The notes: a model not told the origin generated them from the letters alone. A stretch of 64,000 nucleotides of DNA from Patescibacteria group bacterium (GCA_028716485.1 JAQUPS010000006.1:651-64650), one strand, 5' to 3'. Shown: positions 1 through 63,287, counted from the stretch's first letter. Numbers and translations are program-made.

Positions 1-92
1 TACTAAATTTATTAACGAGAATCCACTGGGCGAGTACTCATTAAGAGGCGCGCCCGCCCAGTGGTCGTTCTCTTAAAATTAATAATACGACC

Positions 93-592: not shown

Positions 593-619
593 CATCCCCG
601 ACCAAATCGGCCGGGGATG
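593..619. terminator. hairpin between convergent genes (catccccg / cggggatg)
   Basis: 8-bp GC-rich inverted repeat 593-600 / 612-619, flanked by A/T runs, between the + gene ending near 589 and the - gene ending at 636. Confidence 0.55.
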
Positions 620-635
620 TTAAAACAAGAAATTA

Positions 636-1418
636 TTAGAGTTCTTTTTCCAACACTTGCCATGCTTTTTCGGCGGAGAGTGGCAATCTCAAATTTTTTT
701 CAACCACCGTATTATGCTCGATGAAAATTTGTTTAATGCGGTTTTTGCTCAGATTTAATTTTAGCGTAATTCGCCTGACTAAATCTAAGATTCCGGGAGC
801 CAACGATGAAGATAGAGAATCAAAATTAGGGGAGAATGGCGGATGTTTTTTAAGCAATTCCGGATTGTCTATCCCGCCCAAATTATTCGGCTCATTCAAA
901 TCAAGATAACAGACTTCGAGGTATGTTTGCAAGGATGCTTCTGTCCGCATTTCTTTCGCCAGAATACCCGCCAAACTTGAACGATCGTTGCGATATAAAC
1001 CCCAATCTCCGTTTACGGAATGCGTTGCAAGTTGCCTGTTTAGCGAGATCTTATCAACATCATTGTTAAACGTTTCATTAATAGCAGACCATTCCTCGTC
1101 TATTTTATCGGCCTCATCCTTTGATACGACAAGGCGAACATGATTAGGACGAGTGCGAACGAACATAAATTCTCCGCAATACTGGCATTTAGTTTTTGCC
1201 CCGGGAATTTTAGGGAGAATTTTGTGGCAATTCGGGCATTCCGCCTTCCGCTCATCTTTTATTTTGATTTGCTCTAATTCTTTATCCAGTATTTCTTGAG
1301 CAGGTGGCTGAACATTTTCCATTGATCCTTTAAATTTTTCAGCAACATTATTCTTTGCCACACGAAAGAAAAATTTAAATAATTTTTCTAAAAATCCCAT
1401 ATTACTGTTTAACAACAT
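636..1418 (-). CDS. hypothetical protein with a central zinc-ribbon (CPNC...CQYC)
   Basis: 260-aa ORF with CPNCHKILPKIPGAKTKCQYCGE. An alternative start MGFLEK at 1400 would avoid overlap with the upstream ORF. Confidence 0.55.
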   Translation of the reverse strand: MLLNSNMGFLEKLFKFFFRVAKNNVAEKFKGSMENVQPPAQEILDKELEQIKIKDERKAECPNCHKILPKIPGAKTKCQYCGEFMFVRTRPNHVRLVVSKDEADKIDEEWSAINETFNNDVDKISLNRQLATHSVNGDWGLYRNDRSSLAGILAKEMRTEASLQTYLEVCYLDLNEPNNLGGIDNPELLKKHPPFSPNFDSLSSSLAPGILDLVRRITLKLNLSKNRIKQIFIEHNTVVEKNLRLPLSAEKAWQVLEKEL

Positions 1419-1641
1419 ATTGATATTTGCATTTTGGACACCCAGTATACTTGGTTGATATTCGCCAAATCGGATAAATAAATCCGATTGCTATAAAAAA
1501 TAAAGCCAATGGACCGATAACAAAGAGTCCAATGAAGCTAAAAATAATTATTAAAACGCAAAATAATTCGATCAAAATTGAACCTTTAACGTAAGATGCT
1601 GATTTTCCCTCGTAGCCACAATTGGGGCATTTGATAAGCAT
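1402..1641 (-). CDS. small membrane protein with a split zinc-ribbon (CPNC ... CPKC) flanking two TM helices
   Basis: 79-aa ORF: N-terminal CPNCGYEG, a hydrophobic core, then C-terminal CPKCKYQY. Confidence 0.55.
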   Translation of the reverse strand: MLIKCPNCGYEGKSASYVKGSILIELFCVLIIIFSFIGLFVIGPLALFFIAIGFIYPIWRISTKYTGCPKCKYQYVVKQ

Positions 1642-1726
1642 ATTTTTAAAAATTATCCGGAATGTCCGGGATTAATAATTCAATTTTAACGCTAACATAT
1701 CAACCAATTTAAGTCAACTTTCTTAT

Positions 1727-3817: not shown

Positions 3818-4005
3818 AGTGATTCCGATTCGGCTCCTTTTAAAAATTCGATAACGACAGCAAAGAGAGCGTGGTTTACCCTATTGTTTCGATTGATCAC
3901 GCACTCCTCAAGATTCATTTCCTTTTCGCATTTATCACAAGTACCAAAGGGACACTTTACCGGCTTATTTAATTCTTTCTCCATTTCCTCGATGTTGTTT
4001 GACAT
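3811..4005 (-). CDS. small Cys-rich hypothetical protein, antisense to the tail module
   Basis: 64-aa ORF with CPFGTCDKCEKEMNLEEC. It fills the 224-nt gap between tape measure and hub genes. No obvious SD. Confidence 0.3.
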   Translation of the reverse strand: MSNNIEEMEKELNKPVKCPFGTCDKCEKEMNLEECVINRNNRVNHALFAVVIEFLKGAESESLQ

Positions 4006-4041
4006 GAATTTATAGTTAATAATTACGAGCTAATTATAGCA

Positions 4042-5544
4042 ATGATATCAATAAAAATAAACGGAAACGACTTGAGCAGCCTGATCGATTGGGCGAGCTT
4101 GTCACTGGATCAGGAACTCACCAATGTTGTTGATGTTTTGAGCTTTAATTATAGCAAGTACGGCGATCGGGTTTACATCCCGGCAATCAACGACGAGGTC
4201 GAGCTCTACGAGGGCGCTGGCAAGATCTTCGGGGGCTACATAACGAACATTGTGGAATCGAACGTCAGCAACGCTGATGGCATCCTGTACGCTGTCCAGG
4301 CCTCAGATTATAGCTGCGCCTTCAACAGCATTCTCGCCACCAAAAGCTATGCCAACCAAACTATTGCGGCAATCATCACCGACCTGATCAGTTCCTTCGC
4401 TCCAGACTTCACCACTGCCAATGTGATCGGAAGTTTCGTGATCACTAAAATTGTTTTTAACGAAATGTACCTGGTCGATGCGCTGAAGAAGCTGGCCGAC
4501 ATCGTCAAATATGACTGGCACGTCGATCAAAATAAAGACCTGCACTTTTTCCCGCAGATGACAAATATCGCGCCGTTCAGCCTCACTGATACCGGCGGAA
4601 ATCACATCAACGAAACTCTGAGCCGCACGATCGACGGCACGCAAATCGTGAATCAGGTCAAAGTACGCGGCGGAGAATCCGACGGCGATACCTATACCGA
4701 CGTGATCACGGTCAACGGTTCTAACAGCTCAATTTTTGTCCTGCCATACCAGTTCAGCAATCTGACGATCCAGGTCGACACCGGATCCGGCTATGTCGCC
4801 AAAACAGTCGGTCAAGATTTTCATGATGACCCGTCGACCAAGGACTGCTTGTATAACAACAACGACAAGACGATCAAATTCCCGGCCGTCCTGGGCGATG
4901 GCAATAAAATTAAATTCAGCGGCAACCCGAAAGTTCCGGTCATGTCGATCATTTCCAACCAGGGCAGCATCGGCCTGTACGGCCTCAGAGAGAAGATGAT
5001 TGATGCTCCTAACATTATTGATATGGCGACAGCCCGGCAGCGCGCCAAGGCCGAATTATTGGCTTACCAATACGGCTGCAAGGAGATCACTTTTGACACT
5101 TACAGCAGCGGCTTGCGCGTGGGAATGATCATCAACCTGAACAGCGTGCGGCGTTCGGTCAATGAAAGTTATGTGATCAAAAAAATCACTTTCCAGGCGC
5201 AGACCCCGACCAATTTTTATTACTCGGTCGATGCCATCACCACCAACCAGCAGCAGCTCGTCAACCTGCTGCAGAAGCTGGTCACTAAAGACCAGGGCAG
5301 TCTCGATGACAGTGTTATAGCCGAAACGATTCTCACCGACATGAGCGATGTTGACATCACCGAAATAATCAGAAAAATATCGCCGCTCCTGGATCGCGTT
5401 GATCTTTCACTTTCGGAAACGATCAACAAGGATCCGCTCGGTGCCGGCGTTGAGCCGACTTGGGTGCTCAGTCCTTACACTCCGACCTCGGCAGCCGATC
5501 CGAAACGCCCGGGCCGTCTCGATATTTCATTAAAATTATATTGA
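4042..5544 (+). CDS. phage tail / baseplate hub-like protein (late-control-D / XkdQ-like N-terminus)
   Basis: 500 aa directly after the tape measure. N-terminus ISIKINGNDLSSLIDWASLSLDQELT...VELYEGAGKIFGGYITNI resembles tail hub proteins. Assigned by position and motif only. Confidence 0.6.
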   Translation: MISIKINGNDLSSLIDWASLSLDQELTNVVDVLSFNYSKYGDRVYIPAINDEVELYEGAGKIFGGYITNIVESNVSNADGILYAVQASDYSCAFNSILATKSYANQTIAAIITDLISSFAPDFTTANVIGSFVITKIVFNEMYLVDALKKLADIVKYDWHVDQNKDLHFFPQMTNIAPFSLTDTGGNHINETLSRTIDGTQIVNQVKVRGGESDGDTYTDVITVNGSNSSIFVLPYQFSNLTIQVDTGSGYVAKTVGQDFHDDPSTKDCLYNNNDKTIKFPAVLGDGNKIKFSGNPKVPVMSIISNQGSIGLYGLREKMIDAPNIIDMATARQRAKAELLAYQYGCKEITFDTYSSGLRVGMIINLNSVRRSVNESYVIKKITFQAQTPTNFYYSVDAITTNQQQLVNLLQKLVTKDQGSLDDSVIAETILTDMSDVDITEIIRKISPLLDRVDLSLSETINKDPLGAGVEPTWVLSPYTPTSAADPKRPGRLDISLKLY

Positions 5545-5551
5545 TAAATTT

Positions 5552-6133
5552 ATGACCGAAGTGATTAAAAAAAAGACTCAGGAAGATGTCAAAAATCTTG
5601 CCAACATTAAGCAATTTATACTTGCCGAAGGCGTGCAGGAAAATGGCCCCGAGGTCAAAGCGATCCGCAAATTCGTGAAGAGCGGCGACATCGCCGACAT
5701 CCAGGAATATATCGACTCGGGAAAAATCGTTCAGATGGAAAAGCAGCACAACATCATCGTCGACACCGGACTTGAACAGATGGCGATGAGCCAATCCGGC
5801 GAGCGCGCGACTTCGCCAAATATCAATTACGGAATTTTAGGCACACACGTCACTCCGACACCGTTGCCGAGTTCGGTGATAGGGGATATCACTGAGGGAT
5901 TCCGGAAAATTGCCAGCAGCCGATCACACGATGCCAATGTCAGCTATATCGATTTCTTTTTTACCGCGGCCGACTGCAACGGAACCTATACGCAATTTGC
6001 GAACGTGATCGACGGCACCGGCACGCCGGGCAGCGGCATTTTGTGGAGCTACATCGCGCCGTCTCCGGCCTGGGTCAAGACAAACGCGCAAAGTCTTTTT
6101 ATCAGCTGCGAATATCATAATAATAACGCTTAA
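5552..6133 (+). CDS. phage-module hypothetical protein
   Basis: 193-aa ORF, 7 nt after the hub gene and 5 nt before the fibre gene. Confidence 0.5.
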   Translation: MTEVIKKKTQEDVKNLANIKQFILAEGVQENGPEVKAIRKFVKSGDIADIQEYIDSGKIVQMEKQHNIIVDTGLEQMAMSQSGERATSPNINYGILGTHVTPTPLPSSVIGDITEGFRKIASSRSHDANVSYIDFFFTAADCNGTYTQFANVIDGTGTPGSGILWSYIAPSPAWVKTNAQSLFISCEYHNNNA

Positions 6134-6138
6134 AATAT

Positions 6139-7599
6139 ATGGCACAGACCAAAGAAAATTACGCCTACGGCGACAATGGACTCTACCTGCAGATGAATCA
6201 GTCCGGGAAAAACGCGAACGATGCCGGCGGTTTTCGCGACACGATCAACGCGGCCGAAACCATCGGAATTTTAAAACCGGTTTTCTTGGATGATGCCACT
6301 GACAACTGGAAGTATGCCGATGCCGATGATACTGCCCGCCTAAAATTTGACGGCTTCAGTTTGGCGGCCGGGTCGGCAGGCGTGGCGATGCCGGCGCAAT
6401 GCTCGGGCGTGGTCCGCGGATTATCTTCGCTCGACCCTGGCAAAAAATACTACGTCCAGGATGACGGCACGATCGGAATTGTGCCCGGCACTAATTTGAT
6501 TTTAGTCGGCATCGCGATTAGTGCGACCGAACTCTTGATCATAAAAATAAATACGCCAGGCGATAAAGATTTTTTCGGCGACGGATCGGATGGTGACGTC
6601 ACGATCAGCGGCAACACAACTCTCAGCCGCGATATGTACTACAATAACCTGACGATCAATAATGGCGTTTGGTTAAATCCCGCCGGCTTCAAAATTTTTG
6701 TCAGAAATAAATTGACAAATAACGGCACGATCAAATCCAATGGCGGAGATGCCGGCGGTGGTGGCAATGGAACGAGTGCCAACCCTGGCAGTGGATCACC
6801 GGGCGGTACAGCTGGAACCGCAGGCGCAGCGGCTCACGGTGATGCTTCCCTGAAGGGATCTAAACCCGGACAGCCGGGAGGTGTTGGCGGATCGGGTGGG
6901 TACGCTGGGTCAAACGGTAGCGCGGCCGCGGCTCCAGGAAATGGAGTTCAGGAAACAAATTCATTGAGCCCGGTTGCCGGCGCAAGTTCTGGACCAGGTG
7001 GACAGGGCGGGGGATCAACTAGCAATAGCGGTGGTGGTTATTCGAGCAGCACTTCCGGGTCTGCTGCAGCTGCTCCGAATATCGGAGTAAGATGCAAAGC
7101 GATGATACAGCGCTTCCTAGAGGCAGCCGATGCAGTTTTAAGTTCATTCTCAAGATACGCCGGATCAAGTTCTGCCGGCGGAGGCGGTGGCGGCGGAGGT
7201 GGAGCGGGAACGAATGGGCAAGGATCTTATGCCGCTTCAGGCGGAGGCGGTGGCGGATCAGGTGGAAACGGCGGAAACATTTTTATTGCTGCGTATATCT
7301 TGATCAATAACGGAACCATCCAGGCCAACGGCGGAGCGGGCGGCAATGGCGGAAACGGCGGAAACGGATACAGTGATGGAAACGGTGCTGGCGGAGGCGG
7401 TGGCGGCGGAGCGGGCGGATCAGGAGGCCTAATTTATCTGTCATATTGGCTAATATCAACGCTCGGAACTGTTCAGGCGCTCGGCGGTACCAAAGGACTT
7501 AAGGGATCAAAAGGATCTCTCGGCCACGTCGCGGCGGCAGATGGAACCGACGGATCAGATGGTACAGCGGGAACCGTGACCTACAAGCAAATCTTATAA
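6139..7599 (+). CDS. glycine-rich tail fibre-like protein
   Basis: 486 aa with a globular N-terminus, then long GGxGGNGG tracts interleaved with NNGTI(K/Q)(S/A)NGG motifs. Last gene of the tail module. Confidence 0.6.
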   Translation: MAQTKENYAYGDNGLYLQMNQSGKNANDAGGFRDTINAAETIGILKPVFLDDATDNWKYADADDTARLKFDGFSLAAGSAGVAMPAQCSGVVRGLSSLDPGKKYYVQDDGTIGIVPGTNLILVGIAISATELLIIKINTPGDKDFFGDGSDGDVTISGNTTLSRDMYYNNLTINNGVWLNPAGFKIFVRNKLTNNGTIKSNGGDAGGGGNGTSANPGSGSPGGTAGTAGAAAHGDASLKGSKPGQPGGVGGSGGYAGSNGSAAAAPGNGVQETNSLSPVAGASSGPGGQGGGSTSNSGGGYSSSTSGSAAAAPNIGVRCKAMIQRFLEAADAVLSSFSRYAGSSSAGGGGGGGGGAGTNGQGSYAASGGGGGGSGGNGGNIFIAAYILINNGTIQANGGAGGNGGNGGNGYSDGNGAGGGGGGGAGGSGGLIYLSYWLISTLGTVQALGGTKGLKGSKGSLGHVAAADGTDGSDGTAGTVTYKQIL

Positions 7600-7603
7600 A
7601 ATC

Positions 7604-7637
7604 AAAAACACCGATCAAATTGACCGGTGTTTTTTTG
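7604..7637. terminator. intrinsic terminator (acaccg / cggtgt + T6), A-run on the other side
   Basis: Stem 7608-7613 / 7625-7630, T-run 7631-7636. Lies between convergent genes. Confidence 0.65.
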
Positions 7638-7646
7638 TGGCAAAAT

Positions 7647-8054
7647 TTATCTCGTCATCATGAAGAAAAAAAGCGCGAGAACTGCGATGACCACGCAGAT
7701 GATTATCACTGAATTTTTTTCCGCCGCATCTTTTATTTTCTCGCCGGCATCGTATTTGCCGGCGAGAAAATAATTATACAATTTTAATCCGGCAGCATCA
7801 CCTGAAGCGGAAAGATTTCCATCATCGTCTTCGGTGATAGTTAATTGATTTGTGGAAGGGGACCGATGCGAAAAATAAAGGTAGAGAAGTCCCGGGACGA
7901 TTCCCAAAATCAAAAGTATCAGGGCGATCAGGCAGCTGCCTTTTTGGCCCGGATTGTTCCGCTGATAGCTGAGCATTGAATCAGATTGATTGATCAGCAC
8001 CCAGTTGGCACCGTTCACGCTCATGAAGTTTTTAAATCCCTTCAGTGTTTGCAT
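7647..8054 (-). CDS. membrane protein, hypothetical
   Basis: 135-aa ORF with two clear hydrophobic helices. Confidence 0.5.
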   Translation of the reverse strand: MQTLKGFKNFMSVNGANWVLINQSDSMLSYQRNNPGQKGSCLIALILLILGIVPGLLYLYFSHRSPSTNQLTITEDDDGNLSASGDAAGLKLYNYFLAGKYDAGEKIKDAAEKNSVIIICVVIAVLALFFFMMTR

Positions 8055-8089
8055 AATTTTTTATCGTTAAAATTTTTTAAAGCCGCAAA

Positions 8090-8118
8090 TTGACAATACT
8101 TTAAAATAGATGTATATA
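8090..8118 (+). promoter_or_regulatory. sigma70-like promoter TTGACA-17-TATATA
   Basis: ttgaca at 8090-8095, 17-nt spacer, tatata at 8113-8118 preceded by tg. Followed by two hairpins (8122-8143 perfect 8 bp; 8147-8175 imperfect). Confidence 0.45.
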
Positions 8119-8228
8119 AGCGAGATGCCCGCAAAGGCATCTCTGGCCACAATCGACGTGAGCCGTCAATCGTGGTTAGACTAAATTATAACACTTTTTG
8201 TTGCTTGTCACAAAACCGCAAAATTGTT

Positions 8229-8522
8229 ATGAGTACAGTAATCTTGTCCGCCGATCGGGTCATGACCGGCAGACCACTCGAACTGGGATCAACATTCCGT
8301 GACGAGAATCACGCCTGGGTAGTTTTCCTCGGCTATGATGACCAACACCGGCGCGTTGCCGTCAATTACAAGGACCTCGAACGTATCATTAAAAACGGGT
8401 TAAAAGAGGAGTACCAGGTCAATGTGAGCGTTGCTAGGAAGCGCCGCCCGGCCGAACTTCCGGGACGAATTAAGAGGCTTATCCACAGCCAACTTACAAA
8501 ATTGACCGAACAGCTGGCATAA
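8229..8522 (+). CDS. hypothetical protein (97 aa from the internal ATG)
   Basis: The ORF track starts at a GTG at 8172. MSTVILSADR at 8229 is the first ATG, downstream of the structured leader. Confidence 0.4.
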   Translation: MSTVILSADRVMTGRPLELGSTFRDENHAWVVFLGYDDQHRRVAVNYKDLERIIKNGLKEEYQVNVSVARKRRPAELPGRIKRLIHSQLTKLTEQLA

Positions 8523-8771: not shown

Positions 8772-9731
8772 ATGGAAAATAAACCTATAATAAAATATCT
8801 CACTGATTTTTTGGATTACTTGGAAATCGAAAAAGGCCTGTCGGCCAAGACGCAGGAGAATTATACCAGATTCTTGCAGAAATTTTTTAAATGGCTGGAA
8901 GGGAATAATCTGGCTTCCCTATCCCCTGTCAAGCTGACAGCCGACCATATCTGGAAGTACCGGATTTTTTTGTCGCGCCACATTGATCCGCATAAAAAAA
9001 CCGGCTTGAAGAAATCCACCCAGAATTATTACCTGATTGCTTTAAGAAGTTTGCTGGAATTTTTCGTGGAAAAGAATATTGCCAGCCTGCCTCCGTCAAA
9101 AATAAAATTAGCCAGGGATAAATCCGATCACGCGGTTAAATTTCTTAATTTGGGGCAAATTGAGCAGCTTTTAAGCGCTCCTGACACCGGAAACATCATC
9201 GGTTTAAGAGACCGGGCGATTCTGGAATCTTTTTTTTCCACTGGCTTGCGCATCTCCGAACTTTCCGGACTTAATCGCGAACAGCTGAAAATAAAAAAAG
9301 ATACCCGCGAATTGGAAATCGCCGTGGTGGGCAAGGGCTCGAAAGTCCGGACGGTTTATTTTTCCGCGCGCGCTGTCGACGCTTTGCGAAACTATCTTGG
9401 TAAGCGCACGGATATGGATGAAGCTTTGTTCGTTAATTTCGGAGCCGGCAAGAAGCGCGAAGATGGCTCGTGGCGGCTTTCTAATCGCGCCATCGAAGAT
9501 ATTGTCAAAAAATATGTCCTCATTGCCGGCCTGCCGGTGATGGCCACGCCGCATACTTTGCGCCATTCTTTTGCCACGGACTTGCTTTCCCATGGCGTTG
9601 ATTTGAGGCTGGTACAGGAATTTCTCGGCCACCGCAATATCGCCACCACGCAAATCTATACTCATGTCACCAATAAGCAGTTGCGCGATGTCCATCGCCA
9701 GTCGCATGGCGGCAAAGACATTAAATCATGA
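8772..9731 (+). CDS. xerC: tyrosine recombinase, XerC/XerD family
   Basis: N-terminal SAM-like core-binding domain (FLDYLEIEKGLSAKTQENY). C-terminal HTLRHSFATDLL...LGHRNIATTQIYTHV carries the R-H-R-Y catalytic signature. Confidence 0.9.
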   Translation: MENKPIIKYLTDFLDYLEIEKGLSAKTQENYTRFLQKFFKWLEGNNLASLSPVKLTADHIWKYRIFLSRHIDPHKKTGLKKSTQNYYLIALRSLLEFFVEKNIASLPPSKIKLARDKSDHAVKFLNLGQIEQLLSAPDTGNIIGLRDRAILESFFSTGLRISELSGLNREQLKIKKDTRELEIAVVGKGSKVRTVYFSARAVDALRNYLGKRTDMDEALFVNFGAGKKREDGSWRLSNRAIEDIVKKYVLIAGLPVMATPHTLRHSFATDLLSHGVDLRLVQEFLGHRNIATTQIYTHVTNKQLRDVHRQSHGGKDIKS

Positions 9732-18864: not shown

Positions 18865-18967
18865 GAATTTTTAATTTTTGAATTTTTAAATAAATCCTAA
18901 TTTTTAATTTTTAAAAATAAGTATTAAAAATTTTTTAAAAAATTAAAAATTATAAAATTTAAAAATT
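18865..18967. repeat. AT-only periodic inverted repeat (aattttt / aaaaatt units)
   Basis: Left arm aatttttaatttttgaattttt faces right arm aaaaattaaaaattataaaatttaaaaatt. Confidence 0.5.
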
Positions 18968-20644
18968 CTATTCTATGTCTTCCTTGCGCTCGCGGACATA
19001 TCTCGTCCATTGCTCGGCGATTTCGACGAAGACTTTAAATGGCGCTTCGATGACGAAGTCCATAATAAAGATAAAGACATTGATTTTGGAAAATTTCTGC
19101 GACAGCCATTTGCCTACCGCCGCCACCGGAATAAAGAAAAAGTCGAGCAGGAAATTGAGCAGATTTTCTTTTTCTTCCACCACGATCAATTGCTGGACGT
19201 TCTTGCGGATGCGGATGCTGAAAAAGCTGACGAAAGCCAGGAAGAAAAGGAATATCACGATGCTCACCCAGGTAAAATGAATCTTATCCAAAACCCAAAC
19301 CACTGCGCCGAAAGAAATCAAAAAAGTGAGGGAATAAAGCAGGCTGAAAATAAAACCGATAACCGAGCCGCGGACAGAAGGCTTGCGCAGGACAATCGGC
19401 TCGCGGCGCGTTTTTTCCTCAAAAGTTATTTCCTCAACCCCGGCCACGATCCGCTTGTTGTTGTCGTTGGAGGAAACTTTGGTGAATAAAATCACCAGCA
19501 ACAAAAGAAACGGCGGAAATAAGATATTAATCGCCAAAGAAAAAGGATTTACCTGCTCGCCCAGATATTTCGTCGCCGGAATTTCCAGTAAGACCGCGAA
19601 AATCGTCTTGGTCAAGAAGATATAGATGATGCTATTGATGCCGGAACGCCAGAGCCGAGCCTTAGTCTGGTTGAATTTTTTCTGGAAATTATTTTTTACC
19701 AGATCGGAAAAAACCTGCGGCTTATTTTTGATCGTTTCATACAGCCGAGCCGGATCCTCTTTGATCATATCGACGAGAATCGAATAAAAAACCGTATACT
19801 TATTGATAATTTTGTCCAGCTGCTTCATTAGCGGATGGTCAAGTTGAGCTTCGATCGCGGAGCGGAGCGGCAAAATGCTGGCGGCGATTTTGGCGATATT
19901 TTCTTCGGTCGGATTCCACCAGTCGGCGTTATAATATTTAAAAATTATGAAACCGAGCATGGAACGGTCGAATTTCAAATAAGTGCGGTAGATGCTTAGA
20001 TAGATCTGGATCGGCAGATCTTTTTCAAAAGCGGCGAAATTGACCGGCAATTTAATATCTTTAACCAGATATTCGTAGATATCGCTAATCACCATTTCTT
20101 TCACCTTGTCCACTTCCAAAATCGACTCGATCTCGCTGGCGGCCAGTCCGATCAGCCAATCCCCCAGTTCGCGCTTTTCCGCGGTTACCAGCTTGGCCAT
20201 TTGCGCGGTAATGCCGCGAGGCATGGCCTGTTCGCGCAAGCGCAAATGTTTTTCCAGGATATTTTTGACTTCGTCGATTTTGCTCTCCGAAATTTTGTCA
20301 TTAGGCAGATAGCCGGCGCGGATCAATTCGGTCAAAAGATGGCGAGAGGTTTCCTCGCTCTCGGCGATTTTCACCGCACCCTCGATGACTAACTGCCGTT
20401 TCAGAATTCTGGCCACGGCATTTTTGCGGTGCAGATGCTCTTCGTTATAGTCAACGTAGTTGCGGATTTTTTCGTAATAAAAAGCGACTTTGGAAATCAA
20501 AGCTGAAACTTTTATTTTCGCCTCGCCCTCGCTTTCTTTGGCCGGCTGGTTCTGTTCGCGATAGACAACCTGAAAAAGCTTCCTGACGCCCAGCGTGACG
20601 GAAAGCGTTTCGCTGGTTTTTTTAGTTAAATGAGGGCTGACCAT
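18968..20644 (-). CDS. large membrane protein, hypothetical
   Basis: 558 aa: ~330-aa soluble N-terminal region, then several TM helices. Confidence 0.6.
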   Translation of the reverse strand: MVSPHLTKKTSETLSVTLGVRKLFQVVYREQNQPAKESEGEAKIKVSALISKVAFYYEKIRNYVDYNEEHLHRKNAVARILKRQLVIEGAVKIAESEETSRHLLTELIRAGYLPNDKISESKIDEVKNILEKHLRLREQAMPRGITAQMAKLVTAEKRELGDWLIGLAASEIESILEVDKVKEMVISDIYEYLVKDIKLPVNFAAFEKDLPIQIYLSIYRTYLKFDRSMLGFIIFKYYNADWWNPTEENIAKIAASILPLRSAIEAQLDHPLMKQLDKIINKYTVFYSILVDMIKEDPARLYETIKNKPQVFSDLVKNNFQKKFNQTKARLWRSGINSIIYIFLTKTIFAVLLEIPATKYLGEQVNPFSLAINILFPPFLLLLVILFTKVSSNDNNKRIVAGVEEITFEEKTRREPIVLRKPSVRGSVIGFIFSLLYSLTFLISFGAVVWVLDKIHFTWVSIVIFLFFLAFVSFFSIRIRKNVQQLIVVEEKENLLNFLLDFFFIPVAAVGKWLSQKFSKINVFIFIMDFVIEAPFKVFVEIAEQWTRYVRERKEDIE

Positions 20645-20799
20645 ACGCAGATCAATTAAAAATTAAAAGTGAAAAATTAAAAATTTACCGTAAGCGTCCG
20701 TTTACTAAAAAAATAACTCCTTATAAAGGATTTCCGATTGAATTCAATGGATTGTAATTTTGATTATATTTTAACTTATTTTAAGGATAAAATCAAGCT

Positions 20800-23184: not shown

Positions 23185-23218
23185 AAGCTCTGTCACTATC
23201 GATGGCAGAGCTTTTTTA
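23185..23218 (+). terminator. intrinsic terminator (aagctctg / cagagctt + T run)
   Basis: Stem 23185-23192 / 23206-23213, then tttttt. Confidence 0.7.
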
Positions 23219-23318: not shown

Positions 23319-23353
23319 ACTTTTAACTTTTTACTTTTAACTTTTTACTTTTT
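23319..23353. repeat. five tandem 7-nt units (actttta / acttttt)
   Basis: Read directly. Ends 4 nt before the -35 of the secE promoter. The same unit type occurs at 39113-39147. Confidence 0.7.
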
Positions 23354-23357: not shown

Positions 23358-23386
23358 TTGACACTCTCCCCCATTTACTGTATTAT
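23358..23386 (+). promoter_or_regulatory. sigma70-like promoter TTGACA-17-TATTAT
   Basis: ttgaca at 23358-23363 and tattat at 23381-23386. Confidence 0.5.
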
Positions 23387-23439
23387 AATAATGTAATTAA
23401 ATAAACGCCCTGTCCGGGCTGTTTTTATTATAGAAAGAT

Positions 23440-23631
23440 ATGTTCGCTAAACTTTCCAACTACATCAAGTCGTCCATCGAAGAAATGAAAAAGGTCACCT
23501 GGCCGACCAAAAAAGAAACTTATAATTACACGGTTTTGGTCATCGGCGTTTCACTGGGAGTCGCCGCTTTTTTAGGAGCCCTCGATTATATTTTCAGCAC
23601 GCTGCTGCAAATCGCCATTAACGCGAAATAA
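23440..23631 (+). CDS. secE: preprotein translocase subunit SecE
   Basis: 63 aa, EEMKKVTWPTKKET then a single TM helix. Sits in the conserved secE-nusG position. Confidence 0.85.
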   Translation: MFAKLSNYIKSSIEEMKKVTWPTKKETYNYTVLVIGVSLGVAAFLGALDYIFSTLLQIAINAK

Positions 23632-23673
23632 AAATACTCTTAGAAAATTATTTTAACAAGGAAGGAAACGTAG

Positions 23674-23742
23674 CTCGTATTTCATGTCTCGTATTTGAAA
23701 AATATAAATACGAAATACCAAATACGAGATACGAAATACGAA
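23674..23742. repeat. 7-nt periodic inverted repeat (cgtattt / aaatacg units)
   Basis: Left arm 23674-23697 pairs with 23719-23742 (19 of 24 positions). Ends 5 nt before the nusG ATG. Confidence 0.75.
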
Positions 23743-23747
23743 TATAT

Positions 23748-24293
23748 ATGGCCAAACAAACTTTAAATCAAGGCAGAAGATGGTATGTTCTCCACACCTC
23801 CTCGGGTTACGAAGAAAACGTCTCAACCAATTTGCGCCAGAGAATCGAGACCATGGATGTGGAGGATCAGATTTTCAATGTCTTGGTGCCGACCGAACGA
23901 AAAATAAAAATTAAGAACGGCAAGCGCAAGGTCGTGGAGGAGAAAATTTACCCCGGCTATGTTTTGGTGGAAATGATCGTGACTGATAAGTCCTGGTATG
24001 TGGTCCGCAACACGCCGAACGTCACCGGCTTTATCGGCACAGGCACGACTCCGACGCCGGTTTCCGAGGAAGAAATAAAATCTTTGCAGAAACGGATGGG
24101 CATCGAAGAGCCGAAATTCAAGATTGATTTCTCGGTTGACTCCCCGGTTAAGATCGTCGATGGGCCTTTTAAAAATCTGGAAGGAAAAATCACCAGCATT
24201 GACGAAGAAAAAGGCCGCGTCAAAGTACTCGTCAATATGTTCGGCCGCGAAACTCCGATTGAATTGGACTTCTTGCAGATAAAAAAGATATAA
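23748..24293 (+). CDS. nusG: transcription termination/antitermination factor NusG
   Basis: WYVLHTSSGYEENV NGN domain and a C-terminal KOW (VKIVDGPFKNLEGKITSID). Confidence 0.95.
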   Translation: MAKQTLNQGRRWYVLHTSSGYEENVSTNLRQRIETMDVEDQIFNVLVPTERKIKIKNGKRKVVEEKIYPGYVLVEMIVTDKSWYVVRNTPNVTGFIGTGTTPTPVSEEEIKSLQKRMGIEEPKFKIDFSVDSPVKIVDGPFKNLEGKITSIDEEKGRVKVLVNMFGRETPIELDFLQIKKI

Positions 24294-24301
24294 ATAAACA
24301 T

Positions 24302-24383
24302 CCTAATCCCCGAATAAATCCTAATCTACAAATAGCCGCTTATAGAAAAATTAGCAGATTAGGATTTATTCGGATTAATTAGG
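24302..24383. repeat. inverted repeat (cctaatc / gattagg units), 18-bp perfect stem
   Basis: cgaataaatcctaatct pairs with agattaggatttattcgg around a 28-nt loop. Confidence 0.75.
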
Positions 24384-24422
24384 ATTTTAAATAATGGGAA
24401 TGCTTCTATCCCGCAAAATACT

Positions 24423-24857
24423 ATGGCGAAAGCTAAAAAGAAATTAATAACGCAGATCAAATTACAAATTCCCGCGGGTGCCGCGACTCCCGCGCCGCCG
24501 GTCGGTCCGGCTTTGGGCCAGCATGGCTTGAATATCCAGGAATTCGTCACCAAATTCAACGCCGCCTCACAGGCGATGAAAGGCGATATTTTGCCGGTAA
24601 TTATCAATGTTTACGAAGGCCGTACTTATGATTTTATCATGAAGAAACCGCCAGCCTCCAATCTGATCAAGAAAGCCTTGAAGATTGAAAGCGGCGCGCA
24701 CAATCCTTTAATGGAAAAAGTCGGCACATTGACTGATGCGCAATTGACGGAAATCGCCAAAATTAAGATGCCGGATCTGAATACCACCGATATCGAAGCC
24801 GCCAAGCGCATCATCGCCGGCACGGCCAGACAAATGGGCGTGCTGATCAAGGAATAA
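24423..24857 (+). CDS. rplK: 50S ribosomal protein L11
   Basis: IKLQIPAGAATPAPPVGPALGQHGLNIQEF is a canonical L11. Confidence 0.95.
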   Translation: MAKAKKKLITQIKLQIPAGAATPAPPVGPALGQHGLNIQEFVTKFNAASQAMKGDILPVIINVYEGRTYDFIMKKPPASNLIKKALKIESGAHNPLMEKVGTLTDAQLTEIAKIKMPDLNTTDIEAAKRIIAGTARQMGVLIKE

Positions 24858-24880
24858 ATATAATTTAATCGTTAAAATAA

Positions 24881-24979
24881 TTGTGGGAGACTATTTAATG
24901 CTAAATGCTAAATGCTAAATTATATACAATGATTTAGCATTTAGCATTCATCGTTTAGCATTTTGTCGATTTACCACAA
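24881..24979. repeat. 7-nt periodic inverted repeat (aatgcta / atttagc units) closed by ttgtgg/ccacaa
   Basis: Left arm 24897-24920 and right arm 24932-24962. Same unit as 28086-28131. Confidence 0.75.
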
Positions 24980-24988: not shown

Positions 24989-25825
24989 ATGCCTAAAGAG
25001 AAGAAATCCGCCTACGCCAAGGCTACGGCGGACAAGGTCAAAAAAGAAGAAGTGAAAATCAAAACCGATGCGGTTGAAGAAAAAACCGCGGAAGCTGCCG
25101 AGGAAATAGTTCCGGAAAAGAAAAAATCGGCTAAGTCCGGCAAAAAGGCCGTGATGAAAAAGAAAAAAGTCGCGGTTAATTTTGACCGCAGCAAGAATTA
25201 TCCGATCGCCGAAGCCATTAAATTGGCCAAGGAGAATTCACACGAGAAATTCGACGCCTCCGTCGACGTGCATTTCAATCTGGGAATCGATACTGCCAAG
25301 GGCGAACAGCAAGTCCGCTCCACTGTTGCTTTGCCGCACGGCGTTGGTAAAACGGTCCGCATCGTCGCTTTCGTCGAACCGACCAAGGAAGCTGATGCCA
25401 AAAAAGCCGGCGCTGATTTTATCGGCAATGACGAATTCATCGACAAGATCAAGAAAACCGAAAAAACCGATTTTGATCTGGCCATTGCCGAACCTTCGGT
25501 GATGCGCAAACTCGGCGTGATTGCTAAGATCCTTGGCACCCGCGGCCTGATGCCGTCGCCGAAAAACGATACTGTTACCGCTGACCCGATCAAGGCCATT
25601 GCCGAATTCAAAAAAGGCAAATTAAGCTTCAAGAATGATGATACCGGCAATCTGCATATCACTATCGGCCGCAAATCTTTCGATAATGCTAAGCTGGTTG
25701 AAAATTTCAATGCCTTATTGGAAATCGTCCGCAAAGCCAAACCATCCAGCTCTAAGGGCACATTCATCAAGAATATCACCGTCTGCACCTCGATGGGCGC
25801 GGGCGTGAAAGTCGAAAATGCCTAA
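24989..25825 (+). CDS. rplA: 50S ribosomal protein L1 with a ~50-aa K/E/A-rich N-terminal extension
   Basis: Core (HEKFDASVDVHFNLGID...RSTVALPHGVGK...) is a canonical L1. The first ~50 aa are low-complexity lysine/glutamate. Confidence 0.93.
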   Translation: MPKEKKSAYAKATADKVKKEEVKIKTDAVEEKTAEAAEEIVPEKKKSAKSGKKAVMKKKKVAVNFDRSKNYPIAEAIKLAKENSHEKFDASVDVHFNLGIDTAKGEQQVRSTVALPHGVGKTVRIVAFVEPTKEADAKKAGADFIGNDEFIDKIKKTEKTDFDLAIAEPSVMRKLGVIAKILGTRGLMPSPKNDTVTADPIKAIAEFKKGKLSFKNDDTGNLHITIGRKSFDNAKLVENFNALLEIVRKAKPSSSKGTFIKNITVCTSMGAGVKVENA

Positions 25826-25854
25826 ACTAAACTTCATAATATATATGCAAAGGA

Positions 25855-25905
25855 GCCCCTCACTATTTTTTGAAGCATTTCAAAAAATAGTGAGGGGCTT
25901 TTTTG
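25855..25905 (+). terminator. strong intrinsic terminator (17-bp stem + T6)
   Basis: gcccctcactatttttt gaagcatttc aaaaaatagtgaggggc tttttt. Confidence 0.8.
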
Positions 25906-28085: not shown

Positions 28086-28131
28086 AATGCTAAATGCTAA
28101 ATTTTTTATTTAGCATTTAGCATTTAGCATT
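28086..28131. repeat. 7-nt periodic inverted repeat (aatgcta / atttagc)
   Basis: Left arm 28086-28102 and right arm 28108-28131. Ends 2 nt before the thyA ATG. Confidence 0.75.
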
Positions 28132-28133
28132 AA

Positions 28134-29123
28134 ATGCAACATCCCGAACAACAATACCTCGACCTAATGCGCGATTTGCTTAAAAATGGCATTGAGCAAG
28201 TCGATGCCGGCACCGGCGTAAAGACTTATTCCCTTTTCGGGCGGCAAATCCGTTTTGATTTAAGCCAAGGCTTCCCGCTTTTGACGACCAAAAAAATATT
28301 TTGGCGCGGAATCGTGGAAGAAGTTTTTTGGTTTTTATCCGGCCAAAATAATATTAAATATTTAGTTGATAAAAATATTCACATTTGGGACGACTATCCT
28401 TACCGCATTTACCGGGAAAAAATGGCAACGGGGCAGGAAAAGGAAATGACCAAAGAGGAATTTATCGCCCAGATCGCCGCCGATAATGATTTTGCCGCCG
28501 AACACGGCGCTTTGCCGCATATTTACGGCGATATGTGGCGTCATTGGCCGACTCGAGCTGGCAAGACGATTGACCAGGTTCAATGGGTCGTCGATACTTT
28601 AAAAAAAGACCCAAGCGCGCATAATGCGCTGGTTAATTCCTGGAATCCCGAATATCTTTATGAAATGGCCGCGCCGGGCGAAGCCTGCCGCTTCCCGATC
28701 TGCCATAATTTATATCAAGTGAGCGTTCGCGGGGATAAATTGTTCCTACAGCTTTATCAGCGCACGGCTGACATATTTTTGGGCGTGCCTTTTAATATCG
28801 CCTCCTATGCGCTTTTGACAATAATTCTGGCGCAGATAATCGGTTATCAGCCGGGCGAATTCATCCATACTTTCGGCGATGTCCATTATTATGAAAATCA
28901 TCGCGAGGCAATCAAAGAACAATTGACCCGCGAACCGCTCCCCTTTCCGACTGTAAAATTAAATTCCAATGTTAAAAATATCGATGATTTCAAGCCGGAA
29001 TCTGTCGAACTTGTCGGTTATGAATCGCATCCGCCGATCAAAGCCGAACTTTCTCCTACCGGCGGCATCGTCGATAAATCCTGGAAAAAATTCGTGCAAG
29101 ATGAGAAGTCGAATAAAAAATAA
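28134..29123 (+). CDS. thyA: thymidylate synthase (ThyA)
   Basis: QQYLDLMRDLL start, FPICHNLYQ active-site Cys, and the DIFLGVPFNIASYALL motif. Confidence 0.95.
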   Translation: MQHPEQQYLDLMRDLLKNGIEQVDAGTGVKTYSLFGRQIRFDLSQGFPLLTTKKIFWRGIVEEVFWFLSGQNNIKYLVDKNIHIWDDYPYRIYREKMATGQEKEMTKEEFIAQIAADNDFAAEHGALPHIYGDMWRHWPTRAGKTIDQVQWVVDTLKKDPSAHNALVNSWNPEYLYEMAAPGEACRFPICHNLYQVSVRGDKLFLQLYQRTADIFLGVPFNIASYALLTIILAQIIGYQPGEFIHTFGDVHYYENHREAIKEQLTREPLPFPTVKLNSNVKNIDDFKPESVELVGYESHPPIKAELSPTGGIVDKSWKKFVQDEKSNKK

Positions 29124-34963: not shown

Positions 34964-36448
34964 GTGAAAAATCTCATTTCCATTGATCAATTTTCCGCCC
35001 GGGAAATTTTTGAAAAGATTATTCCCGGCTGCATCAGGATGATCCCCGGAGCCAGAAAAGCGCAAAGCGGCAGATACAAACTGCCGGATTTCCGTGAGAG
35101 GAAACTGACGATTTTTTCCGTCGAGCCGAGCACCCGGACGATTGATTCGTATATGGAAGCTTCCGGACTGCTGGGCTGGTCTGATCACCGCACTCCGCCG
35201 CCCGACAACACTTCCCTGATGAAAAATGAAAGCTGGGCGGAGACAGCCAGAACCTGGGCCATCCAGGGCGCTGGTGTCATCGCCATGCGCACTAAGATCG
35301 AAGGCGTCCAGAAATTCCTGGCCGAAATCTTGGAGCGCGACGGTTTTAACGTCTCTATCCAGAATTGCGGCGACGGCGAACACGAGCATCCGAGCCAGAC
35401 ATTTCTCGACTTGGTGACGATCAAGCAGGAAAAAGGGCGCTTGAAGAATCTGGTTATCGGTTTTTTGGGCGATCTTCGCTTTGGCCGGACTGTGCATTCT
35501 CTGGTTAAAGCGCTGTCGCTTGCGCCGAATATTTCTTTGCGGCTCGTTTCCACCCGGGAGATGACTTTGCCCGAATATTATTTGAAAAATTTCAAGGGCG
35601 AGGTCAGATGCGGTGAAGAGATGGAGCTGCTGGCCGATTGCGATGTTATCTATGCGACTCGCATCCAAGCCGAGCGCTTTCCCTCGGAAGTGCAATATGC
35701 CATTGAAAAGGCCAAAGCAAAATACCGGTTGGATGAGGAAGCGCTTAGCTTATTTAAAGCTGACGCGATTGTTATGCATCCCCTGCCGCACGCCAATGGG
35801 ATCTCGCCCAAAGCGATTTTGGACAAGCGAGTGGTGGTGCACAAGCAATCGTGGTATGGCATTCCGACTCGGATGTATCTTTTGAATCGCGGCTATGCCA
35901 ACCGCTTCAAGAAAGAATCGCTGGGTCGAGTTTTCCAAGGCAAGCTGAAAATAGTCCGGGAGGAAAATCTGAAAGACTACCTGAAAAAAAGGAGGAAGAA
36001 AAAAAATCACACTCGCTTCGGCCGGATTGACAATGGCACGGTCATCGACCATTTGCCCTTGGATTTTGGCGCGAAGATCCGCAATATCCTGGAAAAATCC
36101 GGCTTCCTCAACGAAAAGAGCGCGACGCAAACCAATGAAGATGTTCCATCCACCAGCATGGGAAGAAAAGACGTGCTGGTGCTGGAAAATGTCTTTCTGA
36201 CAAACGAGATGATGATTTCCATCGCTTCTTTTGCGCCAGGCTCAACTTTCAATGTCATCGGAAAAGGACGTTTCCGCAAGCTGGTGCTGGACAAAACCGG
36301 GTCGATCGAAGAGATCGGCAAATGCCCGAATATGAATTGTATAACCAATCATGATCCGGAAGCATTTACGAAATTCATCCCGCTGGGCGGCGGCAACATC
36401 GAATGCCACTATTGCGAACGAAAATTTAAGAACAGTGAAATAATCTGA
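34964..36448 (+). CDS. pyrB: aspartate carbamoyltransferase, catalytic and regulatory chains fused (PyrB-PyrI)
   Basis: GTG start after ggagg. Catalytic motifs STRT, MR, HPSQ, GRTVHS, TRIQAER, HPLP. The C-terminal ~150 aa match PyrI (GTVIDHLP...MGRKDVLVLEN...CPNMNCITN...CHYCE). Confidence 0.85.
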   Translation: MKNLISIDQFSAREIFEKIIPGCIRMIPGARKAQSGRYKLPDFRERKLTIFSVEPSTRTIDSYMEASGLLGWSDHRTPPPDNTSLMKNESWAETARTWAIQGAGVIAMRTKIEGVQKFLAEILERDGFNVSIQNCGDGEHEHPSQTFLDLVTIKQEKGRLKNLVIGFLGDLRFGRTVHSLVKALSLAPNISLRLVSTREMTLPEYYLKNFKGEVRCGEEMELLADCDVIYATRIQAERFPSEVQYAIEKAKAKYRLDEEALSLFKADAIVMHPLPHANGISPKAILDKRVVVHKQSWYGIPTRMYLLNRGYANRFKKESLGRVFQGKLKIVREENLKDYLKKRRKKKNHTRFGRIDNGTVIDHLPLDFGAKIRNILEKSGFLNEKSATQTNEDVPSTSMGRKDVLVLENVFLTNEMMISIASFAPGSTFNVIGKGRFRKLVLDKTGSIEEIGKCPNMNCITNHDPEAFTKFIPLGGGNIECHYCERKFKNSEII

Positions 36449-39112: not shown

Positions 39113-39147
39113 GCTTTTAACTTTTCACTTTTAACTTTTAACTTCGT
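39113..39147. repeat. five tandem 7-nt units (gctttta acttttc actttta actttta acttcgt) abutting the gyrB ATG
   Basis: Read directly. Same unit type as 23319-23353. Confidence 0.7.
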
Positions 39148-45500: not shown

Positions 45501-45530
45501 AAATTATAAAATCCTAAATATTAAATTATA

Positions 45531-45707
45531 AATCCGAAACGAATTAGAAATACTAAGCGCGAAATTCGAAATAAATTGTTATCAACAAGATATAGCGTAA
45601 ATTTTGGAGCTTCAGCCGTTTCGGATTTTGTATTTCGTTTTTCGGATTTACGAAGTTCGTAGTATTCGGATATTTTGTAGATTCGGATTATATTTTTTTA
45701 TTCCGCG
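45531..45707. repeat. periodic inverted repeats (aatccga/tcggatt and tacgaa/ttcgta units)
   Basis: aaatccgaaacgaatt...cgaaattcgaaat on the left faces gtttcggatttt...tttcggatttacgaagttcgtagtattcggat...attcggatt on the right. Confidence 0.65.
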
Positions 45708-48815: not shown

Positions 48816-48842
48816 TTTTTATAACAAGGTATAATTATACCA

Positions 48843-55440: not shown

Positions 55441-55446
55441 AAATCA

Positions 55447-55591
55447 CGTAACACGCAACCCATAACACATAACATGCAAAGAATCGCCCGTTACCTTTAT
55501 TTCTTCTTAATGCAATTATATCATTTCCTTGATAAAAATCAAAGGGAAATTTTATCGGCGGCTTGTTGCGTGTTACGCGCTACGTGTTACG
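55447..55591. repeat. 7-nt periodic inverted repeat (gtaacac / gtgttac units)
   Basis: cgtaacacgcaac (55447-55459) is perfectly complementary to gttgcgtgttacg (55565-55577). cgtgttacg is repeated at 55583-55591. Confidence 0.7.
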
Positions 55592-57878: not shown

Positions 57879-57920
57879 AAGGACGCGATTATTTTTTAAT
57901 AATACGCGTCCTTTTCTTTT
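57879..57920 (+). terminator. intrinsic terminator (aaggacgcg / cgcgtcctt + T-rich)
   Basis: Stem 57879-57887 / 57905-57913, then ttctttt. Confidence 0.6.
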
Positions 57921-57972
57921 CGAATATCGGATTTCGGATTTTGGATATGCTCTTTGATCTTTGCTCTTAATC

Positions 57973-63126: not shown

Positions 63127-63287
63127 AAACGTTGATCATATAATCCGAACCTACGAAATATCCGAATACTACGAACAAATTAAACAAATTATGACTTCAT
63201 CTTACCATAGTTTACGAAAAATAAAAGAGGGAGATAAAAACATCTTCCTCAATTGAAATAGCTAAAATAATTTTACCAATACAATAT

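Follow-up and report, generated by a model that had tools for sequence, protein, structure and literature searches.

Tandem heptanucleotide arrays in the non-coding spacers of a Falkowbacteria-like Patescibacteria contig and their relation to known bacterial simple sequence repeats

Short tandemly repeated repetitive (STRR) sequences, known from the cyanobacteria Calothrix and Nostoc, are intergenic tandem heptamers, the term being used in the sense of one unit that is highly repeated genome-wide. Here we describe tandem 7-nt repeats in a 64,000-nt contig stretch of a Patescibacteria group bacterium (GCA_028716485.1, JAQUPS010000006.1:651-64650; hereafter the window). Arrays of such units, often paired with an inverted array, lie in the spacers of the secE-nusG-rplK-rplA operon and next to other, unrelated housekeeping genes, as identified with Pfam. 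Pieces of related genomes, coded L001 onward, were used for comparison. The explanation that we consider best, and hold with middling confidence, is that these elements are palindromes of heptanucleotide simple sequence repeats (SSRs), made by slippage, transcribed as intercistronic stem-loops and tolerated where Shine-Dalgarno (SD) sites are missing, most of them being dispensable and a few constrained.

In many prokaryotes, heptanucleotide repeats outnumber every other class of long SSR (Mrazek 2007, as cited in PMC4679880 and PMC4692102), and polymerase slippage has been proposed for them. Long heptanucleotide SSRs and STRR sequences share with the arrays described here the over-representation of tandem 7-nt units vs. 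other periods, the intergenic location, the clade-specific abundance and the proposed origin by slippage. Because of this match to long SSR and STRR-type repeats in other bacteria, the window arrays belong to the known heptamer-SSR class. At the same time, STRR-type repeats comprise one to three unit families, whereas many A/T-rich families are present per genome here; the window arrays are short (3-5 copies), and half are paired with an inverted array into near-perfect hairpins; and the host is a reduced Patescibacteria genome. A literature search found no report of such heptamer repeats in Patescibacteria. What distinguishes the present arrays is the large number of A/T-rich unit families per genome, the frequent palindromic pairing and the occupation of the apical helix of a predicted L1 operator.

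Three further systems come close. In marine Beggiatoaceae, TAACTGA repeats of 2-6 copies are located a few nt upstream of start codons (MacGregor 2015, PMC4679880). Like the arrays of the window, they precede unrelated genes, including ribosomal protein genes, in spacers without canonical ribosome-binding sites, yet they use a single unit, in 169 direct sets vs. 1 inverted, while many units and 50% inverted pairs are seen here. The intergenic heptamers GGGAATC of Xanthomonas and GGGGAYT of Nostoc vary widely in both length and sequence (Rehm et al. 2015, PMC4692102), and some of them, as here, occur as inverted pairs able to form stem-loops; they are, however, G-rich and have been proposed to form G-quadruplexes, in contrast to the Watson-Crick hairpins with about 76% A+T described below. 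The only experimentally dissected mechanism for such an element is that of the Haemophilus influenzae hmw (ATCTTTC)n repeat, which is transcribed and forms a long hairpin in the 5′ untranslated region (5′UTR), where a cut by RNase III alters expression (Rapun-Araiz et al. 2025, PMC12721329). In hmw a heptamer SSR makes an arm of a long transcribed hairpin ahead of a gene, and the same is predicted for the window from promoter, terminator and folds. Only one arm of the hmw hairpin is a repeat, the other being a non-repeat G-rich sequence, whereas both arms are repeats here; moreover, the hmw repeat has more than 10 copies and acts in phase variation of a surface adhesin at a single locus, while the present arrays accompany housekeeping genes at many loci.

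The window is a Falkowbacteria-like Patescibacteria contig. Its NusG shares 94-96% identity with proteins of Patescibacteria metagenome-assembled genomes (MAGs), several of which are labelled Falkowbacteria, and for its Pgk a protein with 100% identity is encoded on a 66-kb 'Patescibacteria group bacterium' MAG contig; exact-protein look-ups with the window NusG and L11 gave no matching record. For the comparative analyses we used 80 related genome pieces around nusG (81 with the window), to which 69 metagenome loci were added for the comparison of array density with distance. Tandem repeats were called with Tandem Repeats Finder (TRF), and significance was assessed against shuffled sequence, with dinucleotide shuffles for folds and autocorrelation.

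Results showed clearly that the 7-nt period, proposed in an initial annotation of the window, is enriched over shuffled sequence. Autocorrelation of the pooled intergenic DNA of the window (50 regions, 5,291 nt) reached z = 6.2 at lag 7 and z = 4.6 at lag 14, with a smaller excess at lag 8. Across ~99 kb of non-coding DNA of the window and its 80 relatives, 42 period-7 arrays of at least 3 copies were found vs. a shuffle mean of 1.45 and a shuffle maximum of 4. Period-8 arrays numbered 14 vs. 1.1 in shuffles, and periods 4-6 and 9-15 were near expectation (for example, 4 vs. 1.3 for period 6 and 3 vs. 0.65 for period 9). Altogether 71 period-7 arrays were located in ~103 kb of non-coding DNA, as opposed to 38 in ~770 kb of coding DNA, where periods 6, 9 and 12 dominate. 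When loci were binned by RplK identity to the window, the density of period-7 arrays per 10 kb of non-coding DNA was 13.3 at an identity of at least 85%, 8.8 at 70-85%, 3.6 at 60-70%, 1.6 at 50-60% and 0.6 below 50%. Given this drop with distance from the window, together with the enrichment over shuffles, the arrays are real and clade-wide, and strongest in the window's own group. An assembly artefact is excluded: the array type is present in numerous independently made assemblies, two of the arrays having orthologues in other assemblies.

The arm-loop-arm layout, also pointed out in the initial annotation, recurs as well. An inverted partner, meaning two or more inverted units no more than 150 nt away, was present for 39 of the 78 non-coding period-7/8 arrays, compared with 4 and 11 in the reversed-only and complement-only controls, respectively; the other half are direct-only arrays. 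The units are diverse and contain 76% A+T vs. 64% across all non-coding DNA. At least 8 unit sequences occur within the 64 kb, each family at 2-3 loci, and different loci do use different units, as had been suggested. CRISPR (clustered regularly interspaced short palindromic repeat) arrays consist of 24-48-nt direct repeats with unique spacers of like length between them; the present arrays, made of contiguous 7-8-nt units without spacers, were rightly set apart from these.

All arrays named in the initial annotation were recovered at or near the places it gave for them. Within the operon, Pfam identified SecE (23440-23631), NusG (23748-24293), L11 (rplK, 24423-24857) and L1 (rplA, 24989-25825), and each of the three spacers between them carries a hairpin on the + strand. 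The secE-nusG hairpin (23669..23741), built of CGTATTT/AAATACG units, ends 6 nt before the nusG ATG; TRF called AAATACG x5.3 at 23674-23742, and the arms, 23675-23697 and 23719-23741, are 91% complementary. The nusG-rplK hairpin (24295..24389) has AATCCTA-type units in an array at 24302-24386 and contains the 18-bp perfect stem that had been reported (24310-24327/24356-24373), but not a strict 7-nt periodicity, since TRF returned periods of 18 and 10. The rplK-rplA hairpin (24897..24963) consists of AATGCTA x3.4 and TTTAGCA x4.6, as called by TRF. The same AATGCTA unit is used, on the + strand as well, in the hairpin between dcd and thyA (28086..28131, by TRF and fold), which starts 7 nt past the dcd stop codon and ends 2 nt ahead of the thyA ATG. 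As RNA, these four elements fold with -21 to -38 kcal/mol and z scores of -5.8 to -8.7, and none of 200 dinucleotide shuffles folded as well: we obtained -27.3 kcal/mol for secE-nusG (z = -6.7), -37.7 for nusG-rplK (z = -5.8), -38.5 for the whole rplK-rplA element (z = -8.7) and -21.4 for dcd-thyA (z = -6.0). The reverse strands of the four hairpins fold about equally well, as near-perfect palindromes should.

The operon starts at a consensus sigma-70-type promoter upstream of secE (TTGACA-17-TATTAT, 23358..23386, + strand), which matches the consensus at 11/12 positions, is the best in the 12 kb scanned and is kept in relatives. After rplA the unit ends at an intrinsic terminator (25853..25900, + strand) with a 20-bp stem, 8 G-C pairs and a U tract. 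No promoter-like site of at least 9/12 was found on the + strand between the secE promoter and position 25812, in the last rplA codons. To judge from these signals, the three spacer hairpins, none of which has a U tract after it, are internal to one predicted transcript; lying within one transcription unit, the arrays would therefore be transcribed as long, A/U-rich, near-perfect intercistronic stem-loops. The AATGCTA repeats were considered as tandem extended -10 promoters and rejected on inspection: the hexamer would be TAAATG, a 3/6 match in which the final T is missing.

As regards start codons, an SD-like motif in the -20 to -4 region was present for only 9 of 66 predicted genes and for none of nusG, rplK, rplA, thyA and gyrB. 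Where no ribosome-binding site has to be kept, arrays can reach to within 2-11 nt of the ATG. The upstream regions of predicted genes are A/T-rich and several promoters apparently lie very near the ATG, which may indicate short or absent leaders. One direct array of this kind, ACTTTTA x4.4, is located in the gyrB 5′UTR (39114..39144, + strand) and ends 3 nt before the gyrB ATG, the gyrB promoter (TTGCTT-17-TATAAT) being ~120 nt upstream of the array. Another, ACTTTT[A/T] x5 (23319..23353, + strand), sits where an UP element would, directly ahead of the -35 box of the secE promoter, so that the ACTTTTA unit is found in two contexts, upstream of a -35 box and inside a 5′UTR.

The rplK-rplA hairpin is enclosed in an L1-operator-like element (24881..24979, + strand), which lies in the rplK-rplA spacer and ends 9 nt before the rplA ATG. 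It is composed of an outer helix P1, (UU)GUGG/CCAC(AA), a GAG bulge and the P2 base GAC/GUC. L1-binding mRNA structures directly upstream of rplA have been documented in several phyla (PMC3616713). The L1 stalk of Escherichia coli 23S rRNA has GGUGGGAG...AUACCACCC, and the 60-mer taken for this comparison was confirmed as 23S rRNA in 5,426/5,426 genomes. By its sequence, 24881-24979 is a predicted L1-binding operator that mimics the 23S L1 stalk (GUGGGAG...ACCAC). This element alone among those of the window resembles the L1-interacting mRNA structure of Fu et al. 2013 (PMC3616713), which likewise precedes rplA and has an asymmetric internal loop mimicking the 23S L1 stalk; the published consensus stem has 6-12 bp, while the apical helix here is brought to ~30 bp by the heptamer arrays. 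No Rfam model matches the element.

The frame [G/U]UGG[G/A]AG ... (N)ACCAC was present in the rplK-rplA spacer of 67/119 related loci, where it encloses a hairpin of 14-125 nt, most often 16-24 nt. Among 41 short versions that were aligned, the outer helix GUGG/CCAC was invariant (41/41); in P2, which covaries, the first inner pair was G-C in 38/41, and double-sided changes numbered 27 and 16 in the next two pairs. P1, the GAG bulge and the P2 base are all retained in the window, where the AATGCTA/TTTAGCA arrays form an apical extension of P2. At this position the closest relatives, L081 and L082, show a 20-nt GC hairpin that is shared by the more distant L087, and L083, L084 and L085 have heptamer hairpins with AATTCTT, AATTACA and AATGATA units; together with that of the window, these heptamer hairpins measure 58-99 nt, each with its own unit. 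Independent 7-8-nt repeat extensions were observed at this site in the more distant L004, L005, L009, L012, L037 and L051. The initial annotation had considered translational operators among possible roles, and the rplK-rplA hairpin does lie in a predicted one, but the candidate operator consists of the conserved flanks and not of the heptamers. Any operator function would reside in those flanks, the heptamer stem being, on this comparison, a variable, lineage-specific addition to a length-tolerant apical helix.

A similar variability is seen at other loci. L082 and L084 lack the nusG-rplK array, and L081 and L083 have a CGAATAC-type hairpin in its place. The arrays of the pgk-eno spacer, the gyrB leader and the region downstream of clpB are missing at the syntenic loci L150, L153 and L154, whose Pgk is 75-81% identical. 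In the window, the pgk-eno array is a compound hairpin of the (A)TCCGAA/CGAATAC family (45509..45707, - strand), and the clpB array, TTTCGGA x4 (57918..57946, - strand), is located just upstream of the clpB terminator hairpin. The idea that arrays keep their positions among close relatives thus holds for the dcd-thyA hairpin (in L082 and L003) and for a GTAACAC pair (in L150), but fails for the nusG-rplK, pgk-eno, gyrB and clpB arrays. The dcd-thyA AATGCTA hairpin is orthologous in the window, L082 and L003, and the only large differences between its versions are indels of whole 7-nt units, one per arm; such whole-unit indels are the signature of slippage.

The explanation that we favour would work as follows. 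The clade carries many short tandem arrays of 7-nt, less often 8-nt, units in its non-coding spacers. Array length moves, as observed, in whole-unit steps, and replication slippage would be the cause; identical array sequences have also been seen at more than one place within a single genome. What keeps the inverted arm matched may be selection for pairing or, alternatively, intrastrand template switching (quasi-palindrome correction). Array growth could extend up to the ATG, there being almost no SD sites to keep clear, and in the rplK-rplA spacer the array would lengthen the length-tolerant apical helix of the predicted L1 operator. Most arrays would be short-lived in evolution and dispensable at any one locus. 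A minority of arrays is probably retained under sequence constraint, and some have probably acquired a role; by analogy with the H. influenzae hmw heptamer hairpin, the most plausible role of these would be that of a stem-loop for mRNA processing or a barrier to decay.

Several observations weigh against slippage-made and mostly dispensable arrays. Small Patescibacteria genomes are not expected to let non-functional DNA persist. From stop codon to ATG, the dcd-thyA spacer is identical at 55/58 positions in L082 (95%) and 53/58 in L003 (91%), while fourfold-degenerate sites of the flanking genes are identical at fractions of only 0.5-0.6 (L082) and 0.34-0.49 (L003) (p < 1e-10); identity over the final 36 nt of dcd is 75% and 56%, respectively. 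Such constancy of the AATGCTA unit is unexpected under neutral concerted evolution and therefore points to constraint on at least this element. The GTAACAC/GTGTTAC pair, too, has orthologues of both its arms in L150. Furthermore, the near-identical assemblies L150, L151 and L152 differ in N-runs and scaffold joins, and no array length variation was found among them. Spacer structure points in the same direction. In spacers of 40-160 nt of the close clade (the window and loci L001-L098), the median folding z score of codirectional spacers was -2.29, with 33% below -3, vs. -0.63 and 17% in codirectional spacers of distant taxa, and in 140 structured codirectional spacers the main hairpin extends from ~7-8 nt past the stop codon to 6-12 nt before the start codon.

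These data bear on a second explanation, which we regard as possible though tentative, namely that the intercistronic RNA stem-loops themselves are selected and the repeats are merely how the stems are built. In polycistronic mRNAs without SD sites, such stem-loops would act as RNase III processing sites, as barriers to exonucleolytic decay, or as loop-outs of the spacer that place the stop and the following start codon at the foot of one stem and keep translation coupled. Besides the geometry just given, it is favoured by the fact that convergent spacers of the close clade are highly structured too (median z -3.64; 59% below -3) and divergent ones are not (median z -0.43; 5% below -3), and by the scarcity of U tracts, which follow the main hairpin in only ~10% of the 140 structured codirectional spacers, array-built or not. 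Per 10 kb, codirectional spacers contain 8.6 arrays, about double the density of divergent (4.5) and convergent (3.7) spacers. In the dcd-thyA orthologues the copy numbers of the two arms shift together, and the conservation of the AATGCTA hairpin is far above the level of synonymous sites. The hmw repeat provides an experimental precedent (PMC12721329). However, presence and absence differ among close relatives even in essential operons, half of the arrays have no inverted partner, and one array sits upstream of a promoter. We also saw no G-U signature of the sense strand: in array-bearing codirectional spacers, the sense and the antisense strand folded equally well (24 vs. 22; Wilcoxon p = 0.33). 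The geometry is uneven in the window, where the secE-nusG stem starts 43 nt past the stop codon and the nusG-rplK stem ends 33 nt before the start codon, and no rnc gene is visible within the 64 kb. For nusG, rplK and thyA, a comparison of the best hairpin within 150 nt upstream was dropped, as upstream coding sequence confounded it. The structured codirectional spacers fit equally with selected stem-loops and with palindromes that pile up where they are harmless, that is, in SD-less operon spacers and not in promoter-bearing divergent ones.

A bolder form of the same idea, which we consider rather unlikely, is that repeat-built stem-loops are a selected general device of SD-less operons. They would bring stop and start codons together at the base of one stem and/or serve as an RNase III or decay-barrier site; some units, such as AAUGCUA, would be read by a factor, and slippage would tune stem length and thereby cistron expression.

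REP, BIME and REPIN elements of proteobacteria are intergenic, imperfect palindromes found mostly in codirectional or convergent spacers, where they are transcribed as stem-loops, and they form genome-specific families. The elements of the window are likewise intergenic, hairpin-forming palindromes with dispersed copies, and they might be REP/REPIN-like or miniature inverted-repeat transposable element (MITE)-like mobile palindromes, spread by a transposase of the RAYT-type Y1 or a similar kind, with the heptamers being incidental. We think this quite improbable. In its favour are three inter-locus pairs of 27-39 nt and 93-100% complementarity: 24893-24920 with 28108-28135 (28 nt, 100%), 45655-45693 with 63138-63176 (39 nt, 95%, not simply periodic) and 20656-20682 with 39115-39141 (27 nt, 93%). 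The second pair joins part of the pgk-eno element to a copy upstream of gltX (63138..63176, - strand); the tccgaa/tacgaa arrays that the initial annotation had placed at 45.5 kb and 63.1 kb are present, but they are better described as this dispersed 39-nt repeat. One side of the third pair falls in an array of AATTAAA/TTTTCAC type (20654..20685, - strand), which stops 9 nt short of the start codon (ATG) of the gene at 18968-20644. In addition, the variant GCATTCATC[G/A]TTTAGC is common to the window rplA hairpin and the dcd hairpin of L003, and in L081 and L083 the same CGAATAC-type hairpin stands both ahead of secE and between nusG and rplK. Near-identical segments at distant loci thus make some copying between loci likely. 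Mobile REP-type elements differ in that they have no internal tandem periodicity, occur in hundreds of near-identical copies and have a cognate RAYT; for the latter two the window gave no sign, the copies per family being few in the DNA at hand. Among 60 window ORFs (open reading frames), Pfam found no Y1/RAYT or other transposase except one XerC/D-like integrase. Target-site duplications or clean occupied and empty sites could not be defined from occupied vs. empty spacers, whose flanks were not alignable, and the direct-only arrays and whole-unit length changes are behaviour of SSRs. Exact (AATGCTA)3 arrays were also seen on 14 IMG/VR viral contigs (L156-L169), some with 9-12 or more consecutive copies, which shows that the unit arises as an SSR outside the clade as well.

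Very improbable, in our assessment, is a sequence-specific DNA- or RNA-binding protein that reads the 7-nt register, such as a regulator or nucleoid protein, each genome having a few such specificities. Binding arrays for a repeat-reading protein had been among the suggestions of the initial annotation. It would agree with the identity of the AATGCTA unit in three lineages whose synonymous sites are saturated, and with the presence of heptamers at the secE UP-element position both in the window and in L084, where a different one, TAATTTC x4, takes the place of ACTTTT[A/T]. Identical unit classes are also shared 3.8x more often within genomes than between them (7.0% vs. 1.8%), a difference behind which there are only 5 pairs. 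Yet at least 8 unrelated units within 64 kb, units that differ at one site between close relatives, and arrays that come and go argue against one reader, and so does the occurrence of ACTTTTA in two unlike contexts. Direct arrays near start codons showed no strand bias relative to the downstream gene (9 vs. 6), and Pfam revealed no repeat-domain nucleic-acid-binding protein in the window.

Intrinsic terminators or attenuators between genes are hardly credible, for although the hairpins are stable and lie downstream of stop codons, their stems have ~23% G+C and no more than 9% have 5 or more U among the 8 nt that follow, they precede essential genes inside an operon that runs from a consensus promoter to a canonical terminator, with no internal promoter-like site to restart transcription, and the operon ends of this genome use the canonical type with GC stem and U tract (25853-25900, and 23185-23213 for the gene that precedes the operon); the initial annotation was right in not taking them for ordinary terminators.

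Apart from the arrays discussed above, two more loci of the window carry repeats of this kind. AT-only palindromic AATTTTT/AAAAATT arrays, with no strand assigned, occupy 18866..18967 between an rsmI-like gene and the gene upstream of it. At 55445-55591, arrays of gtaacac and gtgttac had been noted and are present, but they do not make a simple hairpin, as the arms are 105 nt apart and 71% complementary, with a promoter-like site between them. The GTGTTAY array (sense strand) is one arm of this split inverted repeat (55445..55474, - strand) and abuts the ATG of a 113-aa ORF; the other arm, a GTAACAC array (55564..55591, - strand), overlaps the 3′ end of queH. The arms flank a segment of 105-170 nt (window 55425-55600; L150 7440-7680), and the promoter-like TTGATT-16-TATAAT between them, conserved in L150, points at the small ORF of 111-113 aa. 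This geometry resembles an invertible promoter or a long-range pairing that depends on read-through.

Two small hairpins of the operon are not repeat-based. The first, in the secE leader (23407..23426, + strand), is GCCC-UGUCC-GGGC followed by a U run, ~20 nt downstream of the promoter; it is conserved in L001-L007, L081, L083 and L084, a strict regular expression matching 27/97 loci, and it resembles a terminator or attenuator in the leader of the secE-nusG operon. The second, with a GCUUCU loop, precedes rplK (24396..24412, + strand). GCTTCT occurs within 90 nt upstream of rplK in 45/78 close relatives vs. 1/58 distant loci, and the hairpin, which has no Rfam match, may represent a leader element of L11 or L1 that is specific to the clade and has so far gone unrecognised. 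Rfam scans of window positions 18-30 kb and of four relatives gave only sub-threshold matches to microRNA-like hairpins and no known leader.

With respect to the remaining gene content, dCTP deaminase (dcd), ThyA, dihydrofolate reductase (DHFR) and GyrB were among the other proteins identified by Pfam in the window. Nine consecutive ORFs without Pfam match, one of them with Gly-rich GGNGGN repeats at 6876-7428, fill positions 12-8522 and are followed by a XerC/D-type tyrosine recombinase (8772-9731); together they may represent an integrated element or a clade-specific surface-protein island. At 48750-50860, a region of low GC content (31-36%), four copies of a ~300-nt repeat encode paralogous ORFs of 68-115 aa without Pfam match, and it is adjoined by a 1,503-aa secreted-type protein with Big_2 and LCAT/lipase domains, which has internal ~140-nt repeats of its own at 53.8-54.6 kb. 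A single 494-aa ORF at 34964-36448 combines OTCace_N and OTCace (aspartate carbamoyltransferase catalytic) with PyrI and PyrI_C (regulatory chain) domains and is an apparent pyrB-pyrI fusion. Finally, a G+C-rich dispersed inverted repeat of 34 nt (18055-18088/27339-27372; TTTGTCATCCCGAGC...GCGAGGGATCTATA, 94% complementary) is unrelated to the heptamers; 'TTGTCAT[CT][CT]CGA[GA]C' segments that resemble it are present in spacers of L001, L007, L010 and L020.

The intergenic heptamers of cyanobacteria, Xanthomonas and Beggiatoaceae are functionally unexplained, one Haemophilus locus being the exception. With the present results, heptamer repeats become pervasive and quantifiable in a major uncultivated lineage with tiny genomes, in which non-coding DNA is scarce. 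The same essential-operon spacers, with and without arrays, are available across many MAGs and provide a comparative system. For annotation, the array hairpins are not to be labelled as terminators or novel non-coding RNAs, the real conserved cis-elements of the operon being the predicted L1 operator, the GCUUCU hairpin before rplK and the secE leader. Near-absent SD sites and hairpin-filled codirectional spacers, taken together, bear on translation initiation and operon expression in these organisms.

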